Assembly: GCA_965217115.1 (NCBI GenBank)
Contig: OZ244239.1
Coordinates: forward strand, 2,014,672-2,078,671
From: Bdellovibrionales bacterium
GTDB taxonomy: Bacteria; Bdellovibrionota; Bdellovibrionia; Bdellovibrionales; CAYMLA01
Reading direction: 5' to 3'
DNA: 64,000 nt
Below, one piece after another: positions 4,222 to 38,557 of the stretch (the first letter of the stretch is position 1; the number at the start of each line of letters is the position of its first letter). The notes under the pieces were generated by a model that saw nothing but the letters and a program-made list of their open reading frames with translations, ran no database searches and was not told where the DNA came from. The translations under genes were made by a program, and so were the position numbers.

Positions 4222-5389
4222 AAGAATTCTAATGATATCGGCCGAAGCCAGCAGTGCCTTGTATGGGTTGAGAATTTTGCAGGAATGGCAGAGAGAGGGG
4301 AGAGATTATCAGGTTTATGGTATTGGCTCTCGGGATATGGAGGAGAGTGGTCTTGAGTGTTTAGGTTACGCTGAAGATTTGGCTGTGGTAGGATTTCGTG
4401 AAGTTCTGTCTAAGTATAAAGAGATTAAAAAAGTCTATGGAGAAGTCCTTAGAAAAGTGAACAGTCATCCACCAGATGTGGCTGTTTTATTGGACTATCC
4501 CGGATTTAATTTAAGATTAGCAAAGGAATTGAAAAAAAAAAGAATTAAAGTTCTTTACTATATTGCACCCCAGGTGTGGGCTTGGCGGAAAGGTCGGGTT
4601 AAGACGATACGTCGTTATGTAGATGAAGTTCTCTGTATTTTACCTTTTGAGGAAAACTTTTATAAAGAGCATGGAGTGAATGCGAGATTTGTTGGTCACC
4701 CTTTATTAGATGAATTCGATACTGCGCTTTACAGTGAAGATGTGCGCTCTGTACACAGAGGGCGATTTTTTTTTACTGAGGAGGATCAGGTCTTGGGTTT
4801 AATGCCAGGGAGTCGACACGGAGAATTGAAATATAATTTCCCGGTACAGTTGTCAGTGGCTAAGAAGTTGCACCTTAAATATCCTAAATTAAAAATCGCT
4901 ATTTTGGTGGCACCGACTCTGAAAAGGGAAGAGCTGATGGAGTATTTGCAGGAGTTTAAATGTCCCTATGTTGTGATTCAGGATGAGCCCCTTAAAATGA
5001 TTCAGATGGTAGATGTGATGTTGTGTAAATCGGGAACCTCTACGTTGATGGTGGGTTTGATGGGTGTGCCAATGGTCATTATGTATAAAGTAAGTTTTTT
5101 AACAGGAATTGTAGGTAAAATTCTTGTTTCAGGCTTTATTGGTTTAGTGAACATTATTATGAATAAGGAAATCGTGCCAGAGAGGATTCAGGGTGAGGCG
5201 ACAGAGAGAGAATTAGAAGCTCTCTTGGAGAGGATTATGAAAGATGACACCTATTCTTGTGAGATGAAGGATAATTTAAAAAAATTAAAAGAAAAATTAG
5301 AGAACGGTAAAGAGGCAGTGACACAGGGAGTAAGGCCCAAGATGACAGTCGGGCAGAATGTGGCATCAATTATTGAAGGCTATCTGTGA
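4208..5389 (+). CDS. lpxB: Lipid-A-disaccharide synthase
   Basis: AEASSA, DYPGFN, YYIAPQVWAWR, ILPFE, FVGHPL, PGSR motifs. Confidence 0.97.
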   Translation: MVSSKRILMISAEASSALYGLRILQEWQREGRDYQVYGIGSRDMEESGLECLGYAEDLAVVGFREVLSKYKEIKKVYGEVLRKVNSHPPDVAVLLDYPGFNLRLAKELKKKRIKVLYYIAPQVWAWRKGRVKTIRRYVDEVLCILPFEENFYKEHGVNARFVGHPLLDEFDTALYSEDVRSVHRGRFFFTEEDQVLGLMPGSRHGELKYNFPVQLSVAKKLHLKYPKLKIAILVAPTLKREELMEYLQEFKCPYVVIQDEPLKMIQMVDVMLCKSGTSTLMVGLMGVPMVIMYKVSFLTGIVGKILVSGFIGLVNIIMNKEIVPERIQGEATERELEALLERIMKDDTYSCEMKDNLKKLKEKLENGKEAVTQGVRPKMTVGQNVASIIEGYL

Positions 5390-6471
5390 AGATAATATTA
5401 TTCCCTCTTTTAATCTTACTGAGCGTTCTTTATGGGGTCGCTGTTTTCTTTAAGAGAACTTTTTATTTAAAAGATATTTTATTGAGACGAGAAGTTTCTG
5501 TGCCTGTTGTGAGTGTGGGGAATTTGACTGTGGGTGGCACGGGTAAAACTCCTGTGGTGAGTTATCTTATACGTTTTTTTAGTGATCAAGGCTTAAAGGT
5601 TGGAGTGGTGAGCCGTGGGTATAAGGGGGACTTTAAGGGGATTCAAAGAGTGGATTTGAAAAAAGAGGGGAACTTTGGTGATGAGCCGATGATGCTTGCT
5701 GCTCGTTTTCCTCAAGTGCCTATTTATGTTGGTAGAGATAAGTCGCAAGCGTGTCAGATGTTGCTTGAGAAAGAATCAGCCAATGGTTCGGTAGATATGA
5801 TTATTGTGGATGATGGTTTTCAGCATTGGCGACTTAAACGAGATAGGGACATCGTTTTGCTTGATAGCACAAAATCTTGTGAGATTTTTTTTGGAGAGTA
5901 CGCCCTGCTGCCCTTGGGAAAAGGGCGAGAGGGTTTCAGTCAGTTGAGGCGTTCTGACGTTGTGTTCTTAACTAAAGTGGGTTGGGGAGAAGAGAAGAGT
6001 CTGCAAAATATACGCGAGAGACTATCTTGTTATCCTGTGCCTGTTGTGGAGTGGAAGTTTGCATTGAGTGGGCTGAGAGACATAATGACTGGAGAGATGG
6101 TCTCGGAGCGGGATTTACAAAGAATGAAAGATGATAAATGGGGATTGGCTTCAGGTATTGGCAGTCCAAAGAGTTTTGAAGAAGCTGTAAAGAAGGATCT
6201 TAATTTTAAAGTGGCTTGGCATAAGGTGTATGCAGATCATTATAATTTTAAACTTGAAGATTTAAATAAATTACTAGAGAGAGCTGATTCAACGGGAGTA
6301 AAAGGAATTCTTATCAGTGAGAAAGACAGCATTAAGTGGAGAAGGCACACAGAGATGTTGAAGAGTCAGGTAAAAGGGCAAATGGGAAATATTTTGGTGG
6401 CAGAGCTTGAAATTTCCCCTTGTTCCTCTGTAGACTGGAAGAATGTCCTCGCTCATAATTTATCTCTTTAG
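5386..6471 (+). CDS. lpxK: Tetraacyldisaccharide 4'-kinase
   Basis: VGNLTVGGTGKTP, SRGY, GDEP, DDGFQH, LLP.G..RE motifs. Confidence 0.97.
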   Translation: MKIILFPLLILLSVLYGVAVFFKRTFYLKDILLRREVSVPVVSVGNLTVGGTGKTPVVSYLIRFFSDQGLKVGVVSRGYKGDFKGIQRVDLKKEGNFGDEPMMLAARFPQVPIYVGRDKSQACQMLLEKESANGSVDMIIVDDGFQHWRLKRDRDIVLLDSTKSCEIFFGEYALLPLGKGREGFSQLRRSDVVFLTKVGWGEEKSLQNIRERLSCYPVPVVEWKFALSGLRDIMTGEMVSERDLQRMKDDKWGLASGIGSPKSFEEAVKKDLNFKVAWHKVYADHYNFKLEDLNKLLERADSTGVKGILISEKDSIKWRRHTEMLKSQVKGQMGNILVAELEISPCSSVDWKNVLAHNLSL

Positions 6472-7318
6472 GTTTCTTAGCTTTTCCGTTCTTATTTCTC
6501 CCAGATGGTTGCGTAATCTGTGTGGTGATGCCATTGGAATCCTATGGTTTGATGTCCTACGTTTACGTCGTCAGACGGTGTTGAGTAACCTGACCATTGC
6601 CTTTCCAGATTGGGACTTAAAGAAGCGCACAAAGATGGGTCGTCGCTCTCTGTGTAATATGGGGCGAGGTTTTATGGATTTTTTACTCCTCCCCTATGCT
6701 GATAAGAAATGGATGGATGAAAATTTCGTTTTTGAAGGTCTTGAGAATTGGGAAAAGGCTCACGCTAAAGGCAGGGGAGTTCTGCTCTTAGGACTGCACT
6801 TGGGAATGGGAGACTTGGCCCTTGCCGGGATAGGGCTCAAAGGAATCCCAATAAGTGTCATCACAAAAGCATTTAAAGCAAACTGGGCGGAAAACTTTTG
6901 GAATGAGTATCGTGGTAGATTTGGTGTTGAGTTTATTAAAGATCGCAGGAGTTCTTTTGATATTTTGAAGGGGTTGAAAAACAATCGTGGGGTTGTTTTT
7001 GTTTTGGATCAATTTCATGGCCCTCCCATAGGAATTCGTAGTTATTTCTTCGGTAAGGAGACAGGAACGGCTTATGGGTTAGCTGTTTTTGCATTAAAAA
7101 CCCAGGCACCAGTGATCCCTCTGTATGTATATAAAGGGGAAGATCATAAATTTCATTTGGTTTTTGGAGATGAGGTGCTTTTGGAAAATCAGAATGATCG
7201 TGATAAAACGGTGAGCTACATGACGCAGAAGTATGATTTAGTAGTGGAAGATATCGTGAGGCGTTTTCCTCAGCACTGGCTTTGGGTTCATCGCCGTTGG
7301 AAGGAGTATAGAGATTAG
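6443..7318 (+). CDS. lpxL: Lipid A late (lauroyl/myristoyl) acyltransferase
   Basis: HLGMGD (HxxxxD/E), LDQ, FFG, P.HWLWVHRRWK motifs. Confidence 0.9.
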   Translation: MSSLIIYLFRFLSFSVLISPRWLRNLCGDAIGILWFDVLRLRRQTVLSNLTIAFPDWDLKKRTKMGRRSLCNMGRGFMDFLLLPYADKKWMDENFVFEGLENWEKAHAKGRGVLLLGLHLGMGDLALAGIGLKGIPISVITKAFKANWAENFWNEYRGRFGVEFIKDRRSSFDILKGLKNNRGVVFVLDQFHGPPIGIRSYFFGKETGTAYGLAVFALKTQAPVIPLYVYKGEDHKFHLVFGDEVLLENQNDRDKTVSYMTQKYDLVVEDIVRRFPQHWLWVHRRWKEYRD

Positions 7319-7322
7319 GATC

Positions 7323-8279
7323 ATGAAAGAGGGAGCCCTTTTATTTTTTTGTTCTATCTTGACCTCTTGCCAGACGGCGGTTTTAGACTCGAATTATATG
7401 AAAGACACCTCTAACTCAGAAGAGTATGGACAGTTAATAAGTGTAAAACCAATGTCTAAGGCGATCGTGAAGGATAAGCCCCCTAAAAGAAAAGAAAAAC
7501 CCGTCGCTAGAAAGAAGGAAAAATCAGAGCATTTGCCTAAACTTGAGGACAGTGAGGGTTTTTTAAAGAGAAGACCTTTAAAAGATCCATTTCGTGTGGG
7601 TGAGCGCGTGCGTTTACGTCTGACTTACTTTGGGGTTCCGGCGGGGTTTTTGAGTTTAGAGGTGAGGCCCTTTGTTAAAGTCAATGGGCGCAAGTCCTAT
7701 GAGTTCGTGACGAGAGTTAAATCCAATGGGGTGTTTTCGTTATTTTATTCTGTGGATGACGTCGTGAAGACCCATGTGGATTATGAAACTCTCCTTCCCT
7801 ATAACTTCTCTCTTGATGTGAAAGAGAGCAAGCAGCTGGTGAAGGCCCAAGCCTACTATAATAGTAAAACAAATAGAGCGACTTATTGGGAAAAGAAAAT
7901 AACAGAGGATAAAGGGATACAGGAGATGCGTAAAGATTGGAGTGCAGCTCCTTATAGCCAAAATGTTTTTAGTGCTGCGTTTTACATGAGGACTTTTACC
8001 TATAGAACAGGTAAAAAATTGACTTTTCGCGTGGCAGACAAGGGAGAGAATATTGTTTTTACAGGTCATGTTTTGCGCCGAGAGAGAATAAAGACCAAAG
8101 TGGGCGAGTTGGACACGATTGTGGTGCAGCCTCGTATTGGTATAAAGGGTGCTTTTAAGTCTATGGGTGAGATTCTCTTTTGGTTGACTGATGATGATAG
8201 GAAGCTTCTTGTTAAATTAAAGTCAAAGATTCAGATTGGTAGCATCGTAGGATATTTGGATGAACTAAAATCTCAATAG
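7323..8279 (+). CDS. DUF3108 family lipoprotein
   Basis: Lipobox-like LTSC, PFRVGE..Y, W.TDDDRK..VK C-terminal pattern; often found near lipid A genes. Confidence 0.75.
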   Translation: MKEGALLFFCSILTSCQTAVLDSNYMKDTSNSEEYGQLISVKPMSKAIVKDKPPKRKEKPVARKKEKSEHLPKLEDSEGFLKRRPLKDPFRVGERVRLRLTYFGVPAGFLSLEVRPFVKVNGRKSYEFVTRVKSNGVFSLFYSVDDVVKTHVDYETLLPYNFSLDVKESKQLVKAQAYYNSKTNRATYWEKKITEDKGIQEMRKDWSAAPYSQNVFSAAFYMRTFTYRTGKKLTFRVADKGENIVFTGHVLRRERIKTKVGELDTIVVQPRIGIKGAFKSMGEILFWLTDDDRKLLVKLKSKIQIGSIVGYLDELKSQ

Positions 8280-8751
8280 GTGAGAAGGTGTCTAAAACCA
8301 CACAAAAACAAGGGAGTTCACCCTGCCATTGAGGGGGGAGATAACGCGCTACACCTTAAATTAATGGGGCTCCATTGTTTTTTTTTACCGGGGAGCTAGG
8401 GCGATAAATACAGTTCTCTGCCTGGAAAAACTCTCCAGAAATCATGTCTTTTTCTATCTTGATCTCCTTTCCAGGAGTGCTTTTTATGGTTTTTGAACGG
8501 GGTTGTACTATGGAGCGAGAGGTTCTTTTTAGGGGATCATTTTAAGTGAGTCCCCCTATTATTTAGGTGGCGGCGAGCATCATAGCTGGCCTAAGGTATA
8601 GAAAAAGGGTTGCCAGTCATATATTTTATCTGAAACCATATATATCAGGTAGGAAATTTTAAAAATAGAACATCGGTCGAGCAGTCTCTGAAATAGGTTA
8701 GGGCAGTTTGGCCAAAGACTTTAACAACATTGCCGTTCTTTGGAGGACTAA

Positions 8752-9786
8752 ATGAAAAAAATTCTTAGTACACTTGTAGGAATCATGCTGTTTACAACAG
8801 TGAGTCACGCATCTAAGGCTAGATTAAATGCTTTAGGGCAAGATGGAGATGGATCTTTATACATCTTAGACAACCGTAACATTTTTCTAAACCCATCAAC
8901 GTTGAATGATGTGAAAAGTGGTATTTACACTGAATGGGGCTCTAACCCAGAAGGTGGATTTGTTAAGTATTTAGGGGGTATGAAATTTGGTTTTCATATG
9001 GGCTCTGATTCAGCACCCGACTATAACGGTAAGTACTTGCACTCTGGTAACGGTCTTGACTTTTTCTTAGCTGGTGAATCACGGGTTAAGTGGGGTGTCG
9101 CTCTTTCCTATGTATCAAATGAATTGAAAGATGGTGATGATGACGTATTTAAAGAGAGTTCAACCGGTCTTAAACTGGGTGCTTCACGGGGCAACTGGTC
9201 AGCATTTGCTCACCTTGGATTGGGTGGAAAAGCTGAAGGGAGTATTTTTAATGACGAAGATGGGCAGCAGCCTGACGATATTAATGATGTCGCAGAAGGT
9301 AAATCATCTTACACTCTTGGTGGAACCTACAACGTAGGTCAAGGAACTGTTTTTCTTAAGTATAAAACTGGAGAGACAGAAGTAAGTGGAGTGGATACTA
9401 ATTTAAGTAAATCTGCTACTTCCCTTGGTTGGCACAACGGTCATGACATGGGTGATAACGGAATGTGGTTTTACACACTGTCTTATGATAAAGAAACGGC
9501 TGAGGGCGGAGCTTTTGACTTGGATTTTGAAGACACAGCTCTTAAGTCGATTATTGGTTTTGAAGCCCAAGGAGCTAGCTGGCTAACTTTACGTGGGTCT
9601 GTTTCCCAACGCACTTTCATCAATGAAGGCAGTGATGGATCTGTTCCAAACACAACAGCTGTTGCGGCGGGTGCTACGCTTAACTTTGGTAGCTTAAGTA
9701 TTGATGGAAGCCTAGGAAGTATTGGTGATGCAAGTTTAAACGCTTTTGATCTACTTTCTGACGTTGCCCTATCTTACTCGTTCTAA
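8752..9786 (+). CDS. Major outer-membrane porin-like protein (resembles the Bdellovibrio major OMP/PopA family)
   Basis: Signal peptide ending SHA, mature start SKARLNALGQ, D.RNIFLNP, Gly-rich amphipathic strands, C-terminal YSF; strong RBS GGAGG and its own terminator. Confidence 0.75.
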   Translation: MKKILSTLVGIMLFTTVSHASKARLNALGQDGDGSLYILDNRNIFLNPSTLNDVKSGIYTEWGSNPEGGFVKYLGGMKFGFHMGSDSAPDYNGKYLHSGNGLDFFLAGESRVKWGVALSYVSNELKDGDDDVFKESSTGLKLGASRGNWSAFAHLGLGGKAEGSIFNDEDGQQPDDINDVAEGKSSYTLGGTYNVGQGTVFLKYKTGETEVSGVDTNLSKSATSLGWHNGHDMGDNGMWFYTLSYDKETAEGGAFDLDFEDTALKSIIGFEAQGASWLTLRGSVSQRTFINEGSDGSVPNTTAVAAGATLNFGSLSIDGSLGSIGDASLNAFDLLSDVALSYSF

Positions 9787-9810
9787 GCTAAGTTTTATTT
9801 AAAACTGATT

Positions 9811-9840
9811 AAAAAGGAGACTGTAGAGTCTCCTTTTTTT
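9811..9840 (+). terminator. Rho-independent (bidirectional) terminator
   Basis: AAAAAGGAGACT-GTAG-AGTCTCCTTTTTTT. Confidence 0.9.
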
Positions 9841-9872
9841 ATATTTGTGTTTCTTTAATAGTTTATAAAAGG

Positions 9873-10994
9873 ATGTGCATCTTGAAAGGGCCTTCCCACG
9901 GAGTTCTTCTAATTCAAACAGCGTTTATTGGTGATTTGTTATTAACAATCCCCCTCGCCCGTCGCTTAAAAGAATTACTGCCTGAGCATCCTCTAACTCT
10001 TTTATGTCGTAAGGGCTTAGGAGATATTTTACTGGCAACTAAAGTGATTGATCATGCTGTGGAAGTGGATAAGAGAGATCGCAATGCTTGGAAACAGATA
10101 GGGGAAAATCTTAAACAAAAAAAATATAAATGGGTTGTGTGTCCCCATCGTTCTTTCACATCGGCTCGTCTGGTCAGCTCCTTAAAGGCAGACAAGAAGA
10201 TTGGCTATTCTCTTTGGTGGAATTTTACGGTTTTTGACCATCGAGTGCAACGTCCTTTGATTGAGCCGGAGGTGATACGTCAGTTATATCTTATAAGTGA
10301 ATTAGACAAAGTAACAGGTAAGAGGCTGGAGTCTTACAGTGGTCACCAGAAGAGTGCTTTATCTCAAGTACCCACCTGGGCTTCCATGGAATTAAGTGAG
10401 ACTGTGTTTCTCCCGTCTAAGACAGAGATATTAAAGAAAAAATACCTATCGAGATGGAGTGATGGAGAGAAAAAAATCATCTCAGTGGCGCCGGGAAGTG
10501 TGTGGCCAACTAAGAGATGGAGGCTTGATGGATATAAGCAATTGATTGCTGAGTTGCTGGATCGTGATTTTTCCGTGATTTTACTCGGATCGCCTGATGA
10601 GAGAGGGATTTGCGATGAAATAGAAGAGTCACAACAGCAGGGTAGGCGGTCTCAAGTTGTGAATTTAAGTGGTGAGACTTCCCTACTAGAGTCCTTGTAT
10701 TTGATGAAACTGACTTCTGTGCTCGTCGCCAATGACAGTGGTGCTATGCACATGGCCTCGGTTGCGGGTGTCCCGTGTGTGTCTATTTTTGGTCCGACGA
10801 CATTGGGATTAGGTTACCGACCATGGCAGAATAATGCTGCCGTAGTGGAGAATAAGAACCTATCTTGTCGACCTTGCGGTAAACATGGTCACAGAAAATG
10901 CCCTATTGGGACCCATGAGTGTATGACTTCATTGAAGGTGCCTGAGGTCTTGTCCCAACTGGGGCTTCTGGCAAATGACCCGTTTCTTAAATGA
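9873..10994 (+). CDS. waaF: GT9 family LPS heptosyltransferase (WaaF-like)
   Basis: TAFIGD, PGSVWPTKRW, NDSGAMH.A, FGPT, CRPC...C...H.CM motifs; the last ~10 codons come from the repeat element. Confidence 0.88.
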   Translation: MCILKGPSHGVLLIQTAFIGDLLLTIPLARRLKELLPEHPLTLLCRKGLGDILLATKVIDHAVEVDKRDRNAWKQIGENLKQKKYKWVVCPHRSFTSARLVSSLKADKKIGYSLWWNFTVFDHRVQRPLIEPEVIRQLYLISELDKVTGKRLESYSGHQKSALSQVPTWASMELSETVFLPSKTEILKKKYLSRWSDGEKKIISVAPGSVWPTKRWRLDGYKQLIAELLDRDFSVILLGSPDERGICDEIEESQQQGRRSQVVNLSGETSLLESLYLMKLTSVLVANDSGAMHMASVAGVPCVSIFGPTTLGLGYRPWQNNAAVVENKNLSCRPCGKHGHRKCPIGTHECMTSLKVPEVLSQLGLLANDPFLK

Positions 10995-11419
10995 GTCTTT
11001 AAATTATTTAGCTCAGACATTCGTTTGGCATGCACCGCTCGCTTTAAAGCGAGCAAGTGCTGGCAAAGAACACCAACTCCCCCCACTTCGCTGTTCCCAG
11101 TCGAAGGCTTCAAAGGAGAGTTTCTGAGCTAAATAATGAGCTAAATAATGAAGCCTCATTTAAGAAACGGCTCATTTGCCAAACATTCCCTTGGAAGTCC
11201 CATGGGCTGTGAACAACGGGGATGGCTTCTGGCAAAGAACACTTTATACTCGCCCTGCTTCGCTGTTCCCAGTCAGTTGAAGGCTTCAAAGGAGAGTTTC
11301 TTAAATGAGTCTTTGTTATTTAGCGAGTTCGGCTTGGTGCACTGCTCGCTTTGCGAGCGGTGCTGCCAAACGAATGTCTGAGATAAATAATGAAGCCTCA
11401 TTTAAGAAACGGGTCATTT
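10962..11419. repeat. Hairpin repeat cluster 1 (REP/MITE-like, nested inverted arrangement)
   Basis: AAATGACCCGTTTCTTAAATGAG at ~10973 is the exact reverse complement of CTCATTTAAGAAACGGGTCATTT ending at 11419; GCTCGC/GCGAGC core hairpins; shares modules with 12520-13468. Confidence 0.92.
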
Positions 11420-11560
11420 AAAAAAAGGATTTAACGTTGAAGACTCTAAACTCAAGGACAAAAGTCTAGGTTTACTGAAAACAACGTTTAACTTTAAACT
11501 TCATAAGTACTTAAGACCATAATCTACCAAGGAAGTTTTTTCGTGAAAAAGGAGTGTGTA

Positions 11561-12322
11561 ATGAGAGTCTTGTTATTTTTCTGTTTTTTATTCATTTTTG
11601 AAGTTTCCTTTGCTGAAGAATACGCGGAGGGAAAAGTTCAATTAGCAAAAGTTGGTACAAAAGATGAAGCATTTCTCATCGGCGGCAAATATGTAAGTTC
11701 GTGTTCTAAGGGGGATTCTAAAACCCGAAAAACCCTATTGAATGCTATGTCTAATAATGAAAATGTTAATGTTAGTTTTATAGGAGGAGCTTCGAAGAGT
11801 TCTGAATGTATAACAAAGGTTAGATTTGTAACTTCAAAGTGTTTCGATGATTTGAAAGAAATGTCGTCTGAGTTTCGGAGTGATTCGGACAAGGGGTACG
11901 GAGATTCTAAAGGTCTTTTGAATAAGTTTTCTACTTTTGACTATCAATTTGATGAGAATACCCAGAGACATGTCCCATCGATAGTACAGCAAGGAGGAGC
12001 AAAGGAAGGCATTACAGTTATAACTCCCTCTGGTACAATGAAGGTTTCTGGTAGAAGCTGCAATCTCGTATCTAAGAAAACAAGTTTTAAATTTATTGCA
12101 GAAGCACTTAAGTCTGGATATGAGGAAATTAAGCTTAGAGACAGAATTAGAAGTCTAGCTGGAAGGAGGTATAAGAAGAATGGTGATCTTGATAGATATA
12201 AGAAATTACTCAAAACATGCTCTAAGAATATACATCCAGACATTGAAGCCTCTGCTAAATCAATTTTAAATAAAATTAATGGCTCTACTACTGTCAATCG
12301 AACGAAAAAGGTGATTAACTAG
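11561..12322 (+). CDS. Hypothetical secreted Cys-containing basic protein
   Basis: AAGGAG RBS before ATG 11561, signal peptide ending SFA, ~250 aa, no recognised domain. Confidence 0.8.
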   Translation: MRVLLFFCFLFIFEVSFAEEYAEGKVQLAKVGTKDEAFLIGGKYVSSCSKGDSKTRKTLLNAMSNNENVNVSFIGGASKSSECITKVRFVTSKCFDDLKEMSSEFRSDSDKGYGDSKGLLNKFSTFDYQFDENTQRHVPSIVQQGGAKEGITVITPSGTMKVSGRSCNLVSKKTSFKFIAEALKSGYEEIKLRDRIRSLAGRRYKKNGDLDRYKKLLKTCSKNIHPDIEASAKSILNKINGSTTVNRTKKVIN

Positions 12323-12376
12323 ATTTTGTGCCACTAGGTTCTGAGACGAATTAAGAATCAAAAAGTTCAGCCTTTC

Positions 12377-12410
12377 AAAATGGCTCCCGTAAAAAGAAGC
12401 CATTTTTATT
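12377..12410 (+). terminator. Probable intrinsic terminator
   Basis: AAAATGGCT...AGCCATTTT stem followed by T-rich tract downstream of the 11561-12322 gene. Confidence 0.6.
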
Positions 12411-12519
12411 TTTTTAGGAAAGCCCTCTATTTAAAGTGGTCTTTTGTGACAATGTTATCTATTTCCAGAGAAAGACTAAAACTTGTTTCAAGTAAGTTTT
12501 GACTCTATGACCCGTTGTT

Positions 12520-13468
12520 GGGCTTCTGGCAAATGACTCGTCTTCAACGTTGTCTCCACTCTTTAGCTCAGACATTCGTTTGGCAGCACCGCTCGCAAAG
12601 CGAGCAGTGCACCAATCCGAACTCGCTAAAGAGTAAATCCAACTTTGAAGACTCTCCTTTGGAAGTCCCATGGGCTGTGAACAACGGGGTTGGGCTTCTG
12701 GCAAATGACTCGTCTTTAAAGTTGTCTCCACTCTTTAGCTCAGACATTCGTTTGGCAGCACCGCTCGCAAAGCGAGCAGTGCACCAATCCGAACTCGCTA
12801 AAGAGTAAATCCAACTTTAAAGACTCTCCCTTGGAAGTCCCATAGGCTGTGAACAACGGGGATGGGCTTCTGGCAAATGACGTCTTTAAAGTTGTCTTCA
12901 CTCTTTAAAGTTTGCACCCTCGCTTCGAGCTCTTTAGCTCAGTCATGGGCTTCGTTTGGCAGAACACTTTATACTCCCCCCTTCCCCCCGCCGCTCGCAA
13001 AGCGAGAGTTACCAATCCGAACTCGCTAAAGAGTAAATCCAACTTTGAAGACTCTCCCTTGGAAGTCCCATAGGCAGTGAACAACGGGGATGGGCTTCTG
13101 GCAAATGACCCGTCTTTAAAGTTGTCTTCACTCTTTAGCTCAAACATTCGTTTGGCAGCACCGCTCGCTTTGCGAGCAATGCACCAATCCGAACTCGCTA
13201 AAGAGTAAATCCAACTTTAAAGACTCTCCCTTGGAAGTCCCATGGGCTGTGAACAACGGGGTTGGGGTTTTGGCAAAGAACACTTTATACTCCCCCCTTC
13301 CCCCCGCTTCGCTGTTCCCAGTCAGTTGAAGGCTTCAAAGGAGAGTTTCTTAAATGAGTCTTTGTTATTTAGCGAGTTCGGCTTGGTGCGCTGCTCGCTT
13401 TGCGAGCGGTGCTGCCAAACGCATGTTTGAGCTAAATAATGAAGCCTCATTTAAGGAACGGGTCATTT
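12520..13468. repeat. Tandem array of ~172-bp long-hairpin units (4 forward, 1 inverted)
   Basis: GGGCTTCTGGCAAATGAC starts at 12520, 12692, 12864 and 13092; unit 3 carries insertions; final inverted variant unit at ~13310-13468. Confidence 0.95.
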
Positions 13469-14903
13469 AAAAAAAGTTTTTAACATTAATATCGTATTTT
13501 TTTATTTTACGGAGCAAGGTGTTCTTAGGAATATTTGCGTGGGCCACCGTTTTATTGATTTTTCCCTTATTGGCTTTGAGGGCTTTTAGAATAAAATCTT
13601 TTTCAGATTGCTCTTTGAATTTATCGAAATCAAGTTCACCAAATTCATGGGATGGAGGTGTTTTTATTGAGGATGTGGTGTGCATTGAACTGTTGCCGGA
13701 GGGAGTAGGGATCGTCGACATTTTGACGTTATCGGGTAGAGAAGCCAATGAGATTGTAGATGAATTTTCAAGGATAAATGCCCGTTCAATGACATTCTCT
13801 AATTCACGAATATTACCAGGCCAGCGATAGGATTTGAGTATTTCTAAACTAGCTGTTTCGATTTCTTGAATGTTTTTAGTTTGTTGTTTATTGAATTTTT
13901 TTATAAAATGTCGAACAAGCCTTGGGATGTCATTAACTCTATCTCTTAGAGGGGGTATGAAGATGGGCATAACGTTAAGCCGATAAAAGAGGTCTTCTCG
14001 AAAGGCATCATCTTCGATCATTTTTTCTAAGTTACGATTTGTTGCGGCGATAATTCTTGAATTGGTTTTAACCTCTCTTGTACTACCGATAGGAGTGAAT
14101 CTTTTTTCTTGAAGAACTCTGAGAAGTTTTACCTGCATATCGGGCTTAAGTTCACCAACTTCATCAAGAAATAGAGTTCCGTTATTAGCTTGTTGAAAAC
14201 GACCTATTTTTCTATCTGATGCTCCAGTGAAGGAACCTTTTTCGTGGCCAAAGAGTTCACTTTCCATGAGCTGTTCAGGAATTGCACCGCAATTGATTGC
14301 GACAAACTCGCCTTTCTTACGTGGGGAGTTGTAATGTATGGCACGGGCAACGAGTTCTTTCCCCGTGCCATTCTCTCCACGGACGAGAACGGAGGTGTCG
14401 ACTTTACAAAGTTTATAAATAAGGTCAAAAATTTCGCGCATTTTTTCAGAGCTGCCGACAAAATCGCTATCAATGTCATCGTCAAAAATAGGATTGGAGA
14501 TAGCAATTTCTGAAACAATCTGCCTAGCTTGAAGGGATTTTTTGACGATTTCAGTGAGTTTGTTGGGTTGAACTGGCTTTTCTAGATAATCATAGGCACC
14601 TTCTCTAATAGCGGCGACAGCATCGTTGAGATTACTGTGGGCCGTCATAAGTACAACGAAGGTCTTTGGCTGGATTTTTTTGATAGCTTCAAGAGCTTCA
14701 AGTCCAGTCATATTCGGCATCCGAACATCCATAAGGACAAGACCTGGTTGGTGTTGCTTGACTTGCATAAGGGCTTCTTGACCATCTTGGGCTTCTATGA
14801 TGTTGAAATTAAAATTTTCCATGGACTCAAGAACGGAAATGACGGTTCTACGCAATTCACTTTCATCATCAACGATGAGAACTTTTAAATTTTCATTTTC
14901 CAT
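13467..14903 (-). CDS. Sigma54-dependent (NtrC-family) response regulator
   Basis: REC domain (VDDE, DVRMP, KP), AAA+ GENGTGKE, ESELFGHEKGSFTGA, WPGNIRELEN, C-terminal HTH. Confidence 0.96.
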   Translation of the reverse strand: MENENLKVLIVDDESELRRTVISVLESMENFNFNIIEAQDGQEALMQVKQHQPGLVLMDVRMPNMTGLEALEAIKKIQPKTFVVLMTAHSNLNDAVAAIREGAYDYLEKPVQPNKLTEIVKKSLQARQIVSEIAISNPIFDDDIDSDFVGSSEKMREIFDLIYKLCKVDTSVLVRGENGTGKELVARAIHYNSPRKKGEFVAINCGAIPEQLMESELFGHEKGSFTGASDRKIGRFQQANNGTLFLDEVGELKPDMQVKLLRVLQEKRFTPIGSTREVKTNSRIIAATNRNLEKMIEDDAFREDLFYRLNVMPIFIPPLRDRVNDIPRLVRHFIKKFNKQQTKNIQEIETASLEILKSYRWPGNIRELENVIERAFILENSSTISLASLPDNVKMSTIPTPSGNSSMHTTSSIKTPPSHEFGELDFDKFKEQSEKDFILKALKANKGKINKTVAHANIPKNTLLRKIKKYDINVKNFF

Positions 14904-14915
14904 TATTCACCTCAA

Positions 14916-16805
14916 TTAGAGTATTTCATCGTCTTCTACATTGCTCGGCACTTCAATATCTATATCACTTTCAGCGGGTAACCAAAAGCCTATTTTAGTT
15001 CCTTTATTATGTGTGCTTTTCAGTGAGACTTGGCCTCCATGGAGCTCAACAAAGTATTTCACGAGATAGAGACCCAAGCCAGAGCCCTTTGTTTTTAGGT
15101 CTTGTTCTTTGCCTCGAACAAATTTATTCCAAATATTTTTTTGCTCTTCTTGAGTGATTCCAGTTCCGGTATCGGCGACTTCGACAACGATTTTACCTTT
15201 GATTTCTTTGGAACTGATGGTAATACTCCCGCCTTTTGGAGTGTATTTTATAGAATTTTCGATGAGATTAATGATGACTTCTTGAATGAGCGTCACGTCA
15301 AATTCAATGGAGAACATGGGCTCTAATTCAACTGTGAGATTGAGATATTTTTCTTTGGCGAGGGGAGAGAGCTTTTCTATGGCTGCTTCTATGGTTTCAT
15401 TGATTTCAGCAATTTGTAGGTTGATTTTGAAATCTTTGGATTCAACTTTGATGACTTTTAGAATAGACTCAATGTAACGATGCAGCTCTTCTGAGTAATT
15501 TCGTATGGACTTAAGATCTTGAGAAAAATCATATTCATTGTTTTCTGTGATCAATCTGTCTGTCACAGCTTGGATTTTGGCGATAGGAGTTTTTAGGTCG
15601 TGACTGATGAGGCTGACAAAATTACTTTTGAGTTCCTCTACCTTTCTTAAATAAAGTTGTTCTCGTTTGAGGCGCCAGTTTTTTCTCTCAATAATAGATG
15701 CCTGAAGTCCCATAAATATCATCCAAGTAAAAGAGAGTTGTATGAGAGGAGACATAATTGGAACCCAAAAATAATAGGCATCAAAGAGCCAAATGGAGAG
15801 TCCTAAGCAACAGATAAAGAGTGCAGTGATAAAAACAATTGTGGATTGGCTAGGGTAGCGTCTCATTATGATGAGAGAAACGATGAGTAGAAAGAAGAGG
15901 TAGAGAATGTACCATTCATAATCTAAATGCTCGATCCAACGTCTATGGAGAATGTTATCTGTGATATGGGCGATAATTTCAGCTCGATTCATAAGACCTA
16001 GAGGGGTTAAAAATTGATGCCCAGGAGCTGTTCCAGAACCAATAATCACAAGTTTATTCTTAAAAAAATCGGGGGAAAGTTTTTTTAGAAGAACTTGGGA
16101 TAGACTGACTTCGGAGAAGGAGTTAGTCGCTCCACGAAAATTGATCAATCTACTTGTTGGGAAAACGTATTCGATGGAGGGTCGTGGGTCTATTTTCTCA
16201 GATATGCGGGCGGCTATGTGAGGTATGCCAATAAGGGGAGAAGAGAAATGCCTAAGAATGCCATCGTCATCTGCCTGTAAATCCCCAATGCCGATATTGT
16301 CTCCGTATTCGTTGGAAAAACGAGGAGGGAGAGTTTGAGCCCGTCGATTTAAGTAGGTGTTCCATATAACTGTGGGATGAGTGAATATTTTCTCTTGCTC
16401 TTGTGAGAGGGAGGTCTTTGGGATATTATCTCCAAAAAAGAAGGTGACAGCAATGGCCGTTGGTTTTTGCTCTAGGAGAAGGTTGAGAATGTTCACCCAA
16501 GTTTTTTCATTCCAATAGAGATTATCTGGAAGATGATTGTCAGAGAACTGTAGATAATTATTCTTTTGGAGGAATTTTTTACGGTCCTCTGGAGTTATTT
16601 TAATAATAACAATATCAGGAACAAAGCCATTCTGGCCGCGTAAACTCAGGCGTGTGTCAAAAGACTTGAGTTCATCAAAAGTAAGAGCAACAAGTCCTAC
16701 GGTCCAGCAGAGGAAGACCCTTAACCATATGTTTCGACGACGCCAAATAGGGAGCGCTAGAAACCAAAATCGCTTGAGGAGTCGGTATTTCCATTTTGAC
16801 CACAT
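14916..16805 (-). CDS. CHASE2-domain sensor histidine kinase
   Basis: DDDGILR, LINF.G, KNKLVIIG, TP.G.M CHASE2 motifs, three TM helices, SHDLKTP H-box, N/G1/G2 boxes. Confidence 0.93.
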   Translation of the reverse strand: MWSKWKYRLLKRFWFLALPIWRRRNIWLRVFLCWTVGLVALTFDELKSFDTRLSLRGQNGFVPDIVIIKITPEDRKKFLQKNNYLQFSDNHLPDNLYWNEKTWVNILNLLLEQKPTAIAVTFFFGDNIPKTSLSQEQEKIFTHPTVIWNTYLNRRAQTLPPRFSNEYGDNIGIGDLQADDDGILRHFSSPLIGIPHIAARISEKIDPRPSIEYVFPTSRLINFRGATNSFSEVSLSQVLLKKLSPDFFKNKLVIIGSGTAPGHQFLTPLGLMNRAEIIAHITDNILHRRWIEHLDYEWYILYLFFLLIVSLIIMRRYPSQSTIVFITALFICCLGLSIWLFDAYYFWVPIMSPLIQLSFTWMIFMGLQASIIERKNWRLKREQLYLRKVEELKSNFVSLISHDLKTPIAKIQAVTDRLITENNEYDFSQDLKSIRNYSEELHRYIESILKVIKVESKDFKINLQIAEINETIEAAIEKLSPLAKEKYLNLTVELEPMFSIEFDVTLIQEVIINLIENSIKYTPKGGSITISSKEIKGKIVVEVADTGTGITQEEQKNIWNKFVRGKEQDLKTKGSGLGLYLVKYFVELHGGQVSLKSTHNKGTKIGFWLPAESDIDIEVPSNVEDDEIL

Positions 16806-16895
16806 TCGACGCTATGTAGCAGAAAAGTTATTTTTTTTCAATACTTAGGGGACATAATACTCGCTAGTTTTTTTGAATTGCAATAAGTTCATGGA

Positions 16896-17834
16896 ATGAA
16901 GGTTTGCCATGGTATTCATAATTTAGAGGGTTTTACGAAAGGGGCTGTTCTCACCCTGGGGAATTTTGATGGAGTGCACTCTGGCCACCGCCAAATTATT
17001 GAACGGGCCCTAGAGATATCCCAGAAATTGAGTGCATCATCTGTAGTTTTTACATTCTCTCCCCATCCAGTTCAGGTGATTTCTCCTGAAAGTGGTTTTA
17101 AGAGAATTTTTAGTGAAAAAGATCAAGAGTTTGAATTAAAAAAAATGGGTGTTTCACTCTTAAATGTGGAACCCTTTTCTTTGGAGTTGTCTCAAGTGTG
17201 TGCGGAGGACTTCTTTGAGAATTACATTTGGCAGCCTCTAAAGCCTTCGGCCATCGTGATTGGCTATGATTTTGCTTTTGGATCGGATAAGAAAGGCACG
17301 GTGGCTTTTTTGCGAACTATTTGTGAAGAGCGGGGGATTCATTTAGAGATGCTAGACTCCTATAAGAGAGAAGGTCGCATTGTTAGTAGCACTCTTATTA
17401 GAGAGTTAATTCAAGAGGGAAAAGTTGATGAGGTGCCTTCTTACTTGGGGCGCCATTTCTATTTAGAAGGCAAGGTGATTGAGGGGGCCAGAAGAGGAAG
17501 ACGATTGGGTTTTCCCACGGCAAATACCTTGTGTCCAACAGAGTTACAAGTTTGCTATGGGGTTTATGTGAGTCGTGTTTGGATTGAAGGAGAGGGGGAA
17601 GATAAAAAAAGCCACTTGTCTGTGACTAACGTGGGTTATAGCCCCACATTTAGTCAAGATGGAGAGAGGCTTCTTATTGAAACTCATATCTTAGATTTTG
17701 ATAGAGATGTGTATGGTAAGATGTTGAGAGTGGATTTTTTAAAATTTATGAGACATGAAAAGAAATTCCCCTCTATTGATGAGTTATCAAAACAGATAAA
17801 GATGGATATCGATAAAGCCAGAAGTGAAAAATAA
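16896..17834 (+). CDS. ribF: Bifunctional riboflavin kinase/FAD synthetase
   Basis: GNFDGVHSGH, SST.IR, GRRLGFPTAN, ETHILDF motifs. Confidence 0.98.
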   Translation: MKVCHGIHNLEGFTKGAVLTLGNFDGVHSGHRQIIERALEISQKLSASSVVFTFSPHPVQVISPESGFKRIFSEKDQEFELKKMGVSLLNVEPFSLELSQVCAEDFFENYIWQPLKPSAIVIGYDFAFGSDKKGTVAFLRTICEERGIHLEMLDSYKREGRIVSSTLIRELIQEGKVDEVPSYLGRHFYLEGKVIEGARRGRRLGFPTANTLCPTELQVCYGVYVSRVWIEGEGEDKKSHLSVTNVGYSPTFSQDGERLLIETHILDFDRDVYGKMLRVDFLKFMRHEKKFPSIDELSKQIKMDIDKARSEK

Positions 17835-26795: not shown

Positions 26796-27199
26796 AGTTC
26801 CTTTTAAATAATTCAATAATCATATCACTGTATCTAGAAGTGGACAAACCACTCTTCATGTAGGCCCAAAGATTAGCTCAATATATTGAAAATAGCGGCC
26901 CCCCTTGAGGACGCACGACAAATCAGGGTCGGCAAGACCGTTTAGGAATTCAACTTACGAAACGTTAAACAAAACAGTCAGTTATGAAGTTACCTGAGCA
27001 TCACTCACTGGAGTGACAAAAGAGAGCTGGAATTTTATTTTTTGAGGTTCTTTGTGATAAATAGTGGAACATAGTAATTCTAGCTACTTACCCTAAAGAT
27101 CGTTTTAAATAGCAAGCCATTTTAAAACTCTGATTTTTGTGATTTTTAATTCGTCCTGCATTATCTCCTACCCTTGTCGGCCAAGGAGAGTTCACTGCA

Positions 27200-35839: not shown

Positions 35840-38557
35840 ATGATGAGCACAAGAAGTATTACTGAAATTATTGAGGAATTACAAACGTATAAAAATTGTA
35901 TTTTTCGCGGTGAAAATAAAAAATACGATGAAGTATCATCAGCGCTATATCGAAAATTTAAGAAAGAAGGTGATATGTCTCATCTGTTTAAAATAGAGAA
36001 AGAGTCGATTGAAGATGCAAGGCCTCATATTCCGATAGACACAGACATTGAAATTTTAGCTAAGTTACAGCGTGATGGAGGAAAAACGAATTTAATTGAT
36101 TTTTCTTCTGATAAACTGGTTGCTTTATTTTTTGCTTGTAATGGTGAGTTTGAGGAAGATGGGAGAATCATTATTTTTAATAAATCTAAGGCAACGGAAA
36201 AAAAAATCATTGAGTATGAAGACAAAGAGCCTTATGGAATAGTGTTTTCTACCAGCAAAGAGGTACGAGCAATTGCTCAAAGCAATGTATTTATTCATGC
36301 AAAACAATGTTATATAAAGGAAGAGGATTACATATCTGTTCCTATACAAAAAGAAGAAAAAAAAGCATTATTAAAAAGTTTAGATGAAGACTTTAATAAA
36401 AGTAAGGAGACTCTTTATAATGACTGGATAAACTTTATTCAAAATCGAGATGATTATCTTGAGAAAGAAGTAGAGCGGCTTGAAAATTTAAATGATGACT
36501 CCTTAGGGAAAAACATAGAACTCATCAGGGGACATACAGAAATAAACCCTCAAAAGGCAAATGCATATAATATTCGGGGCAATAAGAAGCTTGCTTTAGG
36601 TGATAACAAAGGGGCAATAGCAGCTTTTGATAAAGCCATAAAAATAAATTCTCAAGACAACGGTGCATACCATAGTCGAAGTATTGCAAAATTTGCTTTA
36701 GGAAAATATCAAGAGGCAGTAGAAGATTGTGATAAGGTCATAGAAATAAACTCTCAAGATGCGATTTCATATATTAACCGAGGTTTAGCAAGATTTACTT
36801 TAGGCGATAGCAAGGGAGCAATAGAAGATCTTAATAAAGCCATAGAACTAAATCCTCAAAATGCCAATGCATATAATATTCGAGGCGCTATAAGGTTTGC
36901 TTTAGGTGATAAAAACGGGGCACTAGCAGATTATGATAAATCCATAGGAATAGATCCTCAAAAGGCCAAGGTATACTATAATCGAGGCATTGTAAAGGTT
37001 GAGTTAGGTGATAAGAAAGGTGCAATAGTAGATTATGATAAATCCATAGGAATAGATCCTCAAAATGCCCTTACATATAATAACCGAGGCAATGCAAAGC
37101 TTAGATTAGGTGAGAATCTAGGGGCACTAGCAGATTATAATAAAGCCATAGAGTTAGATCCTCAACTTGCAATGGCATACGTTAACCGAGGCAATGCAAA
37201 GGCTGAGTTAGGTGAGAATCAAGAGGCAATAGTAGATTTTGATAAAGCCATAGAGTTAAATCCTCAACTTCCAGAAGCATATGCTAGCCGAGGCAGTGTA
37301 AATGGTGATTTAGGTAATAAGAAATGGGCACTAGCAGATTTTGATAAAGCCATAGAAATAAACCCTGATCTTGCAGAGGCATATGCTAGCCGAGGCATTG
37401 TAAAGGATGGTTTAGGTGATAATGAAGGGGCACTAGCAGATTATAATAAAGCTATAGAACTAGGTCCTAAATATGCAATGGCGTACTTTAACCGAGGCGT
37501 TACAAAGTTTAAATTAGATGATAATGAAGGGGCACTAGCAGATTATAATAAAGCCATAGAGCTAAACCCTAATTTTGCGGAGGCATATAATAATCGAGGC
37601 AATGCAAAGTTAAAATTAGGTGATAATCCAGGGGCAACAGCAGATTTTGATAAAGCGATAGAACTAAACCCTCAACTTGCCAATGCATACTATAGCCGAG
37701 GTAATACAAAGTTTGTTTCAAGTGATAAAAACGGTGCAATAGTAGATTTGAATAAAGCCATAGAACTAAATCCTGAATATGTAGAGGCGTACTGTAATCG
37801 AGGCATTGCAAAAGCTGATTTAGGTAATAATCAAGAGGCAATAATAGATTTTGATAAAGCGATAGAACTAAACCTTCAACTTGCCAGTGCATACTATAAC
37901 CGAGGCAAGGCAAAGTTTGCTTTATATGATAAGAAAGGGGCGATAGCAGATTATAATAAAGCCATAGAACTAAATCCTGAATATGCAGAAGCATACTGTA
38001 GTCGAGGCATTGTAAAAGTTAAGTTAGGTGATAATCAAGGAGCAATAGCAGATTTTGATAAAGCCATAGAGCTAAACCCTAATTTTGCGGAGGCATATAA
38101 TAATCGAGGCAATGCAAAGCTTGGATTAAATGATAAGGAAGGGGCAATAGTAGATTTTGATAAAGCGATAGAACTAAACCCTCAATTTGCCAGTGCATAC
38201 TATAGCCGAGGTAATGCAAAGACTGTTTCAGGTAATAATAAAGGGGCAATAGTAGATTATGATAAAGCCATAAAAATAAATCCTCACTTTGCAGAGGCAT
38301 ACTGTAATCGAGGTAATGCAAAGGTTGTTTTAGGTAATAATAAAGGGGCAATAGTAGATTATGATAAAGCCATAAAAATAAATCCTCACTTTGCAGAGGC
38401 ATATTGTAACCGATCTATTGTAAAGTTTAATTTAGGCATTAGAAATATAGCAATCGCAGAGTTGACACAAGCAAAAATATTCTTTGAAAAACAAGGAGAC
38501 ACGGAAGCAGTTGCTAAAATAGAACAGACTTTACAAAAACTAAAAAATAGCAATTAA
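35840..38557 (+). CDS. FRG-domain protein with ~19 TPR repeats
   Basis: IFRGE, T.LIDFS...LVALFFAC, R..AQS.VF; 34-aa repeats AY.NRG...LG....A..D..KAIE.NP with 102-bp periodicity. Confidence 0.92.
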   Translation: MMSTRSITEIIEELQTYKNCIFRGENKKYDEVSSALYRKFKKEGDMSHLFKIEKESIEDARPHIPIDTDIEILAKLQRDGGKTNLIDFSSDKLVALFFACNGEFEEDGRIIIFNKSKATEKKIIEYEDKEPYGIVFSTSKEVRAIAQSNVFIHAKQCYIKEEDYISVPIQKEEKKALLKSLDEDFNKSKETLYNDWINFIQNRDDYLEKEVERLENLNDDSLGKNIELIRGHTEINPQKANAYNIRGNKKLALGDNKGAIAAFDKAIKINSQDNGAYHSRSIAKFALGKYQEAVEDCDKVIEINSQDAISYINRGLARFTLGDSKGAIEDLNKAIELNPQNANAYNIRGAIRFALGDKNGALADYDKSIGIDPQKAKVYYNRGIVKVELGDKKGAIVDYDKSIGIDPQNALTYNNRGNAKLRLGENLGALADYNKAIELDPQLAMAYVNRGNAKAELGENQEAIVDFDKAIELNPQLPEAYASRGSVNGDLGNKKWALADFDKAIEINPDLAEAYASRGIVKDGLGDNEGALADYNKAIELGPKYAMAYFNRGVTKFKLDDNEGALADYNKAIELNPNFAEAYNNRGNAKLKLGDNPGATADFDKAIELNPQLANAYYSRGNTKFVSSDKNGAIVDLNKAIELNPEYVEAYCNRGIAKADLGNNQEAIIDFDKAIELNLQLASAYYNRGKAKFALYDKKGAIADYNKAIELNPEYAEAYCSRGIVKVKLGDNQGAIADFDKAIELNPNFAEAYNNRGNAKLGLNDKEGAIVDFDKAIELNPQFASAYYSRGNAKTVSGNNKGAIVDYDKAIKINPHFAEAYCNRGNAKVVLGNNKGAIVDYDKAIKINPHFAEAYCNRSIVKFNLGIRNIAIAELTQAKIFFEKQGDTEAVAKIEQTLQKLKNSN

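Follow-up and report, generated by a model that had tools for sequence, protein, structure and literature searches.

A tandem array in a Bdellovibrionales genome belongs to a genome-wide family of long hairpin repeats, probably REPIN-like

Introduction

ERIC, YPAL, BIME, and BOX sequences are imperfect palindromes of 100 to 170 bp that lie in intergenic, probably transcribed DNA and show compensatory changes, internal indels, mosaic combinations of modules, and tandem blocks. A second group of hairpin repeats comprises the REP sequences and REPINs of Escherichia coli and Pseudomonas, which are described together with the RAYTs in PMC5581495, PMC3116915, and PMC3733652. RAYTs are typically single-copy (PMC5581495), and REPs carry an end tag, GTAG or CGTC (PMC3733652).

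Here we describe a hairpin repeat that forms a tandem array in a 64,000-nucleotide stretch of contig OZ244239.1 (the window) and recurs throughout its Bdellovibrionales host genome, a single contig of 2.17 Mb with 39.6% G+C. It shares with ERIC, YPAL, BIME, and BOX the imperfect palindrome of 100 to 170 bp, the compensatory changes, the indels, the mosaics, and the tandem blocks, but its sequence is unrelated, it belongs to another host lineage (Bdellovibrionales), and three features set it apart: an internal loop that is asymmetric and conserved, an orientation that is strictly sense at stop codons, and a (GGGAACAGCGRG)n tail. Like the REPs and REPINs, it is extragenic, noncoding, high-copy (99 cores), and hairpin-forming (z from -5.8 to -8.9), lies at gene 3' ends and in clusters, and has no terminal inverted repeats or target duplications. 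Its host copies also resemble the orphans that persist after loss of a partner, and in the relative G020 it flanks Y1 HUH superfamily genes, relatives of which carry the label RayT at JGI. It differs in being one hairpin of 150 to 170 nt rather than two inverted REPs of 20 to 40 nt, so that short paired REPs are absent; in having a conserved asymmetric center and variable arms, where REPINs have conserved REPs and a variable spacer; and in carrying, by inspection, neither of these end tags in conserved form. A RAYT resides in the same genome as its repeats, flanked by them and typically in single copy, whereas the host studied here has no cognate RAYT and the candidate gene is present as seven paralogs in G020.

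We conclude, with a probability of roughly 55%, that the array is a local tandem pile-up of an orphaned, REPIN-like, non-autonomous family of single-strand-DNA elements. The hairpin is a new variant of hairpin repeats and not a new class. The original prediction, made from the nucleotide sequence, put the element forward as a candidate undescribed one, and this holds as far as Rfam, which has no match, and the literature searched on Bdellovibrio repeats and RAYTs, which yielded nothing relevant, can show.

Organization of the array

Two clusters of one repeat flank a 259-aa ORF in the window (Table 1). Cluster 2 (12520-13263, plus strand) consists, on reading of the sequence, of four units of ~172 bp arranged head to tail, of which the third is disrupted. 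Tandem Repeats Finder reports a period of 172 at 12517-12907 (2.3 copies, 95% matches), and a repeat search of the window returns a 267-nt family at spacings of 172 and 400, together with shorter conserved blocks in five to seven copies, at 12520, 12692, 12864, 13092, and the start of a fifth unit at 13265. Abutting units are separated by 2 to 6 nt. Unit 3 has a rearranged 5' arm and an extra 30-nt piece directly after the TTTGGCA of the core, which is also present at 13277-13307. Cluster 1 (10962-11438) combines a sense unit that is truncated, a deletion derivative in inverted orientation, and one copy of a second subfamily; the other copy of that subfamily is the inverted unit beyond the array, and the two (13299-13487 and 11250-11438) form a direct repeat with 95% identity over 189 nt at a spacing of 2049 (family D2). 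Both the tandem ~172-bp array and the second subfamily, as originally proposed, are thus borne out.

Table 1. Repeat units and neighboring genes in the window
Feature	Position	Strand	Basis and remarks
Glycosyltransferase-9 ORF	9873-10994	+	Pfam; ends within the 10962-11075 unit at TGA 10992-10994
Truncated sense unit (5' end, 5' arm, 5' core motif, apical stem)	10962-11075	+	Sequence; families D4-D6, D17
Inverted deletion derivative (3' tail fused to 5' arm, core absent)	11057-11181	-	Sequence; inverted repeats I9, I13
Second-subfamily unit, copy 1 (cluster 1)	11250-11438	-	Repeat family D2; core at genome position 2026054
259-aa ORF between the two direct repeats	11543-12322	+	ORF list; hydrophobic N terminus
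Unit 1	12520-12691	+	Sequence, Tandem Repeats Finder, repeat search, core search
Unit 2 (reference unit for folding)	12692-12863	+	Sequence, Tandem Repeats Finder, folding, core search
Unit 3 (disrupted, 228 nt)	12864-13091	+	Sequence; repeat family D13
Unit 4	13092-13263	+	Sequence, repeat search, core search
First 14 nt of a fifth unit, joining the tail of the inverted unit	13264-13298	+	Sequence, alignment
Second-subfamily unit, copy 2 (inverted)	13299-13487	-	Sequence, repeat search, folding
Sigma-54 response regulator gene	13467-14903	-	Pfam; stop 13467-13469 abuts the 5' end of the 13299-13487 unit

There are no unique spacers between the units, either in the array sequence or by Tandem Repeats Finder, and Pfam scans of the ORFs at 5386-17831 identify no cas, transposase, or reverse transcriptase gene, in agreement with what had been noted from the sequence; a CRISPR array is ruled out on the absence of unique spacers and of a cas gene among these ORFs. 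A coding reading of the repeat was rejected because its period, 172, is not divisible by three. Equally rejected was an antisense ORF that starts at the ATG of the core (59 aa in the array): it ranges from ~15 aa upward across subfamilies and crosses the arms that covary pairwise.

Public contigs from four runs of one sample agree fully with the assembly across the junction of unique sequence with unit 1 (12334-12544, 11837-12555, and 12020-12578) and across that with the inverted unit (13227-13378). These short-read contigs end within the repeats and none spans the array, so its copy number rests on the assembly. It is nonetheless extremely improbable that the array is an assembly artefact, as the contigs cross both junctions, the units can be told apart at fixed positions, and similar arrays are present at no fewer than eight other host loci and in other genomes.

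Folding of the unit

Each unit folds into one long hairpin. Unit 2 gives -65.9 kcal/mol on the plus strand (z -6.5, a stability matched by 0 of 200 shuffles) and, on the minus strand, -81.4 kcal/mol (z -8.9), and the inverted unit at 13299-13487 gives -73.8 kcal/mol (z -5.8). In all 40 near-identical copies and in 51 of the 59 diverse ones (the two groups of the family described below), the minus strand gives the more stable fold, an asymmetry that stems from the shared core, so that the copies are not independent evidence.

All of the stems listed in the original prediction are present in the sequence. The ~55-nt linker that was placed after the stem is in part paired as well (GGGCTTCTGG with CCTTGGAAGTCCC), which extends the hairpin to ~150 nt. 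The paired change to which it drew attention, GTCTTCAA/TTGAAGAC versus GTCTTTAA/TTAAAGAC, is real, but units 3 and 4 mix both paired states, so that the change may reflect exchange between units and not an independent compensatory event.

A genome-wide family

BLASTN and nhmmer searches of the host genome place the unit at 18 loci, often in tandem or 1 to 3.5 kb apart. The most conserved part is an asymmetric core in the middle of the hairpin, which consists of 5'-GCTCArACATnCGTTTGGCA, a short apical stem-loop, and CCAAkCCGAACTCGC-3', and a two-part core search identifies 99 cores, of which 59 are diverse and 40 near-identical; the array units of the window belong to the diverse group. All 99 lie outside long ORFs, stop-codon overlaps excepted. 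The 10-mer GCTCA[AG]ACAT occurs 101 times against 8.4 expected, with 80 of the 101 within the counted elements. The copy-number search suggested in the original prediction therefore reveals a genome-wide family and not a local oddity, and these hairpin repeats account for nearly 1% of this very compact genome.

A diverse copy is built from a 5' box (TTGATTTTGGCAAA-like), a long imperfect hairpin, and a 3' tail (CTGGGAACAGCGGGG-like), often followed by a variable, purine-rich microsatellite with a 12-nt period, (GGGAACAGCGRG)n. The tetranucleotide TTGA precedes the 5' box in about eight subfamilies and may belong to the element itself. At G000:C1:1814990-1815200, a 12-nt purine-rich repeat, (GGGGACAGCGAG)n, is present in more than 12 copies downstream of a unit tail; quadruplexes could form from its G-runs, and the opposite strand is C-rich.

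The period of the arrays varies by locus (about 169, 172, 187, 224 to 298, and 273 nt), and in the longer-period arrays extra flanking DNA is repeated too, including ~90 nt of the 3' end of the upstream gene, which argues that arrays grew by tandem duplication of segments and not by repeated precise insertion. Among these local duplicates, a manual count gives 29 minority variants in 63 core columns and 63 in 53 arm columns; the core thus changes ~2.6 times less per column than the arms, and its unpaired bases are almost invariant. This constraint on the core fits a resident function better than it fits decaying relics.

Gene ends, insertion, and enclosed genes

The units are intergenic and typically begin where a same-strand gene stops: this is the case for 18 of the 59 diverse copies, which start at the stop codon of such an ORF, with the core 19 to 56 nt beyond it, and several ORFs end at a TGA inside the 5' box of the unit. 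Where two genes converge, each has a sense-oriented unit of its own at its 3' end. Of 19 hairpins in other genomes, 10 start within 60 nt past the stop of a same-strand ORF. Within gene islands, such as those at 474-483 kb and 1814-1822 kb of the genome, units are antisense to their neighbors.

The two genes that flank the repeat region of the window have orthologs in three relatives (G007, G010, and G009) that are convergent and abutting or overlapping (-12 to +13 nt), and the C termini of the encoded proteins are similar in length across the host and the relatives compared. The whole 2.47 kb in the host, containing both clusters and the 259-aa gene, is therefore an insertion into a formerly empty site. 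The 259-aa ORF matches no Pfam or NCBIfam family, and a homolog is absent from all 60 relatives; its two paralogs in the host, at 1909757 and 1910548, are flanked by units too. Units often bracket lineage-specific genes in this way, and at several loci the bracketing copies are direct repeats that reach 20 to 90 nt into the 3' end of the upstream gene. A scan of 43 ORFs taken from unit-flanked loci beyond the window assigned no Pfam family to most of them; the remainder includes LRR, ankyrin, and FG-GAP proteins as well as a toxin-antitoxin pair of the RES/Xre type.

Such an arrangement could also arise if the hairpins were recombination sites folded from single-stranded DNA, similar to integron attC sites, at which a tyrosine recombinase (Xer or another) captures cassettes at gene 3' ends. 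As with attC, the units are imperfect hairpins with conserved unpaired bases, are positioned directly after ORFs, form arrays, and lie between accessory genes; most genes between copies are lineage-specific or accessory, the scanned ORFs mostly lack a Pfam family, the paralogs of the 259-aa gene are bracketed as well, and the inclusion of an upstream gene 3' end in the direct repeats is expected of integration at an attachment site. The same direct repeats would, however, result from homologous recombination between repeats. Moreover, the conserved sequence is central and not at the hairpin foot as in attC, and many arrays consist of consecutive units without any gene between them. The host genome has no integron integrase (best score, 120.7 against a cutoff of 265 bits), and its three tyrosine recombinases, one XerC-like, one XerD-like, and one phage-type integrase with an excisionase, score no higher than this and are not near any array. 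We consider capture at such sites very unlikely.

Two observations on the enclosed DNA are of separate note. A pair composed of an Xre-type antitoxin and a RES-domain toxin lies between hairpin units at G000:C1:531619-532795 (L036, 4420-5593). Another repeat, of ~110 nt, edges unit-bracketed gene blocks near 829017, 917894, 1815820, 1817948, 1821478, and 2119782; it has the 12-mer ATGTCTGAGCTA (reverse strand) in common with the hairpin core, and on that strand it opens a short ORF starting MSELFSPWHRICT.

Hairpins in relatives and covariation

A scan with the 5' core motif, using one genome per species, yielded 31 loci, 18 of which are, by record title, from Bdellovibrionota, Bdellovibrionales, or Pseudobdellovibrionaceae. 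The 3' core motif is within range in 11 of these 18 (12 cores), and at a twelfth, L028, it is present with one base inserted. The cores of the relatives sit in near-perfect hairpins whose arms show no resemblance to those of the host genome. A covariance model built from 36 sequences of six genomes matches seven of 60 Bdellovibrionales relatives, across seven families of the order, with 1 to 22 copies each, a patchy distribution. In the relative G021, at L059 (G021:C1:2534399-2537509), a unit with a long apical insertion starts 5 nt past the 3' end of a tRNA gene.

In the 36-sequence alignment, 88.9% of cells pair, and two-sided changes are present in 15 of 15 outer-helix pairs and 6 of 18 inner pairs; the covariation score was reached by 0 of 500 shuffles, and sliding the partner by one column lowers pairing to 36 to 43%, with slid partners overall at 32 to 43%. 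The structure is kept while the sequence diverges, as proposed originally, with the outer arms turning over and the core conserved. G-U pairs are scarce: one-sided changes number 0 to 2 per pair, and a manual count of the sense strand of the outer helix gives ~17 G-U against 29 A-C cells. Because A-C outnumber G-U, the pairs bear no strand-specific mark of selection on RNA. The same pattern would result if a DNA hairpin, or copies that need to transpose, were under selection, and covariation alone cannot tell selection on RNA from selection on a DNA hairpin.

These data bear on whether the units are cis-acting RNA elements of 3' untranslated regions, which would block exonucleases, end transcription, or direct processing, in the way proposed for REP and ERIC sequences, with their spread being secondary. 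The stop-codon positions in the host and in other genomes, the convergent genes each capped by a unit, the strong folding, the high covariation, and a core that is more constrained than the arms in local duplicates of a genome without the transposase all speak for such a role. Against it, the region 10800-13700 contains 0 intrinsic terminator sites (G+C-rich stem plus T run), compared with a shuffled mean of 3.1; the only Rfam matches at gathering score in the whole window are three tRNAs; and of the five matches in 10900-13550 at E values up to 10, all far under their gathering scores, only two touch a unit (12375-12476 and 13402-13506). The rarity of G-U pairs, the antisense orientation of units to their neighbors in gene islands, and the patchy occurrence in relatives also count against it, and on balance we view this explanation as unlikely. 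A processed noncoding RNA array, one of two possibilities offered in the original prediction, finds no support given the scarcity of G-U pairs, and the other, a REPIN-like family mobilized in trans, is better supported.

A candidate enzyme in a relative

Of 66 scanned ORFs that adjoin hairpins in the relatives, three are Y1_Tnp genes, all in G020. This genome has seven hairpins and seven Y1 paralogs with 80 to 84% protein identity; five of the seven hairpins are 57 to 240 nt from a Y1 paralog, one Y1 gene lies between two hairpins, all on one strand, and another paralog adjoins a sixth hairpin, which is truncated. The adjacency is too close for chance in G020, and its link to the window is an indirect one through a single genome. 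Hairpin orientation and distance relative to the gene vary, and no fixed insertion-sequence structure could be defined.

The best solved relative of the G020 Y1 protein is PDB 2xm3, which we take to be ISDra2 TnpA, and in the alignment of the two both the HUH motif (NHIHLE) and the catalytic tyrosine (KDYIK) are kept. The protein scores under the NCBIfam cutoffs for IS200 (27.9 versus 55 bits) and RAYT (18.2 versus 80 bits), and it belongs to the clade with RayT-labelled members mentioned above. At the level of the whole element, a comparison can be drawn with IS200/IS605 and their transposase-less derivatives (palindrome-associated transposable elements), which likewise have a Y1-type transposase and hairpin ends but no inverted terminal repeats or target duplication, and which the one hairpin-gene-hairpin arrangement on one strand in G020 resembles. 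However, no fixed left and right ends could be defined here, the orientation of the hairpin to the gene varies, the end hairpins of IS200/IS605 are several times shorter, and the G020 protein is below the IS200 cutoff. IS200/IS605 elements insert 3' of a fixed target of 4 to 5 nt, to which the TTGA before the 5' box could correspond unless it is part of the element.

No Y1 gene was found in the host genome with either the Pfam model or the G020 protein as query, and tblastn with 120 members of the clade detected no remnant (best E value, 0.006). The wider Y1 clade is present in 33 of 60 relatives, in up to 41 copies, and is absent by the G020 query from the host genome, G007, G021, and G001, of which G007 has 22 hairpins. 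At this broad level, relatives with the hairpin have a Y1 gene no more often (4 of 7) than those without it (29 of 53). Twenty-seven Y1 loci outside G020, which belong to other subfamilies, have no such hairpin; a sliding-fold scan for other long hairpins near Y1 genes of other subfamilies gave nothing clear in 16 loci; and a metagenome scan for proteins closely related to the Y1 of G020 returned one distant match, with 38% identity. The host genome also has no IS110, TnpB-type, DDE_Tnp_1, or ISL3 transposase gene, and an all-against-all BLASTP of 1871 ORFs identified no multi-copy gene family enriched near the repeats. The search for an HUH or RAYT gene beside the unit, advised in the original prediction, hence succeeded in G020, where five of seven hairpins are beside RayT-like Y1 genes, and failed in the host genome, from which the gene is missing.

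A REPIN-like origin would operate as follows. The element would fold as single-stranded DNA, and its hairpin would be recognized by a Y1 (HUH) transposase akin to IS200/RayT but diverged, a candidate for which adjoins the same hairpin in G020; this enzyme was presumably lost from the host genome, and the host copies would be orphans that transpose no longer. Their number would now grow by tandem duplication of whole segments, and the repeats may serve as recombination substrates, by which lineage-specific genes come to lie between direct repeats. As for the REPIN- or MITE-like, trans-mobilized family originally envisaged, the genome-wide copies, the 2.47-kb insertion, and the G020 Y1 genes favor it, and the MITE part does not extend to the window units, which are without MITE ends.

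A further alternative is that the hairpin is a resident functional site kept by the host, either the folded-DNA attachment site of a gene capture process that is free of an integron integrase or a domesticated 3'-end element bound by a conserved protein. Three features suggest this: the nearly invariant, slow-changing unpaired bases of the core in a genome without the Y1 transposase, the sense orientation exactly at stop codons in several genomes, and the bracketing of lineage-specific genes and their paralogs by the hairpin together with copies of the upstream 3' end. We judge it quite unlikely overall.

The hairpin repeats mark sites of lineage-specific gene gain and matter for assembling, annotating, and comparing genomes of uncultured Bdellovibrionales. 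They also extend what is known of hairpin repeats associated with Y1 transposases, in that the unit is far longer than a REP, has a conserved asymmetric internal loop, and persists in many copies without the enzyme. If true, constraint on the core without a transposase would offer a direct test of whether such repeats are kept for the benefit of the host.

A near-identical MITE subfamily and other elements

The 40 near-identical copies lie within a true MITE, with terminal inverted repeats of ~25 nt (GGTTCTTTATGACAAACAATAGTGG...) and 8-bp target duplications, which are seen at genome positions 229330, 577285, 1377261/1377432, 1673786/1673957, and 1425593. It could thus be asked whether all units are ordinary MITEs moved by a DDE transposase, as this subfamily suggests. 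The diverse copies, including all array units of the window, nevertheless have no terminal inverted repeats or target-site duplications, and their two ends are unlike each other. There is no DDE_Tnp_1 or ISL3 gene, the host genome contains no transposase gene matching the MITE, and the inverted repeats of the sole rve element are unrelated; an ordinary MITE origin of the window units is accordingly highly unlikely. MITE copies hold the hairpin module inside, with variable extra modules, and a solo terminal repeat of the MITE is present at 27046-27070 of the window.

The rve element is a single insertion sequence of ~1.4 kb (G000:C1:1562056-1563483; L085, 1252-2679) with 60-nt imperfect inverted repeats, and a copy of its end sequence adjoins one MITE copy near genome position 2002928. 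A type VI retron at G000:C1:1868639-1869175 (L096), with an RT_VI protein of 315 aa (E value, 1e-71) and an HTH_VI partner (E value, 7e-28), is unrelated to the units and codes for the sole reverse transcriptase of the host genome. The window also contains long tandem arrays with a period of 102 (and 204) at 36587-38436 and 50095-50573, detected by Tandem Repeats Finder, which by their consensus are probably coding repeats, TPR-like and ankyrin-like.
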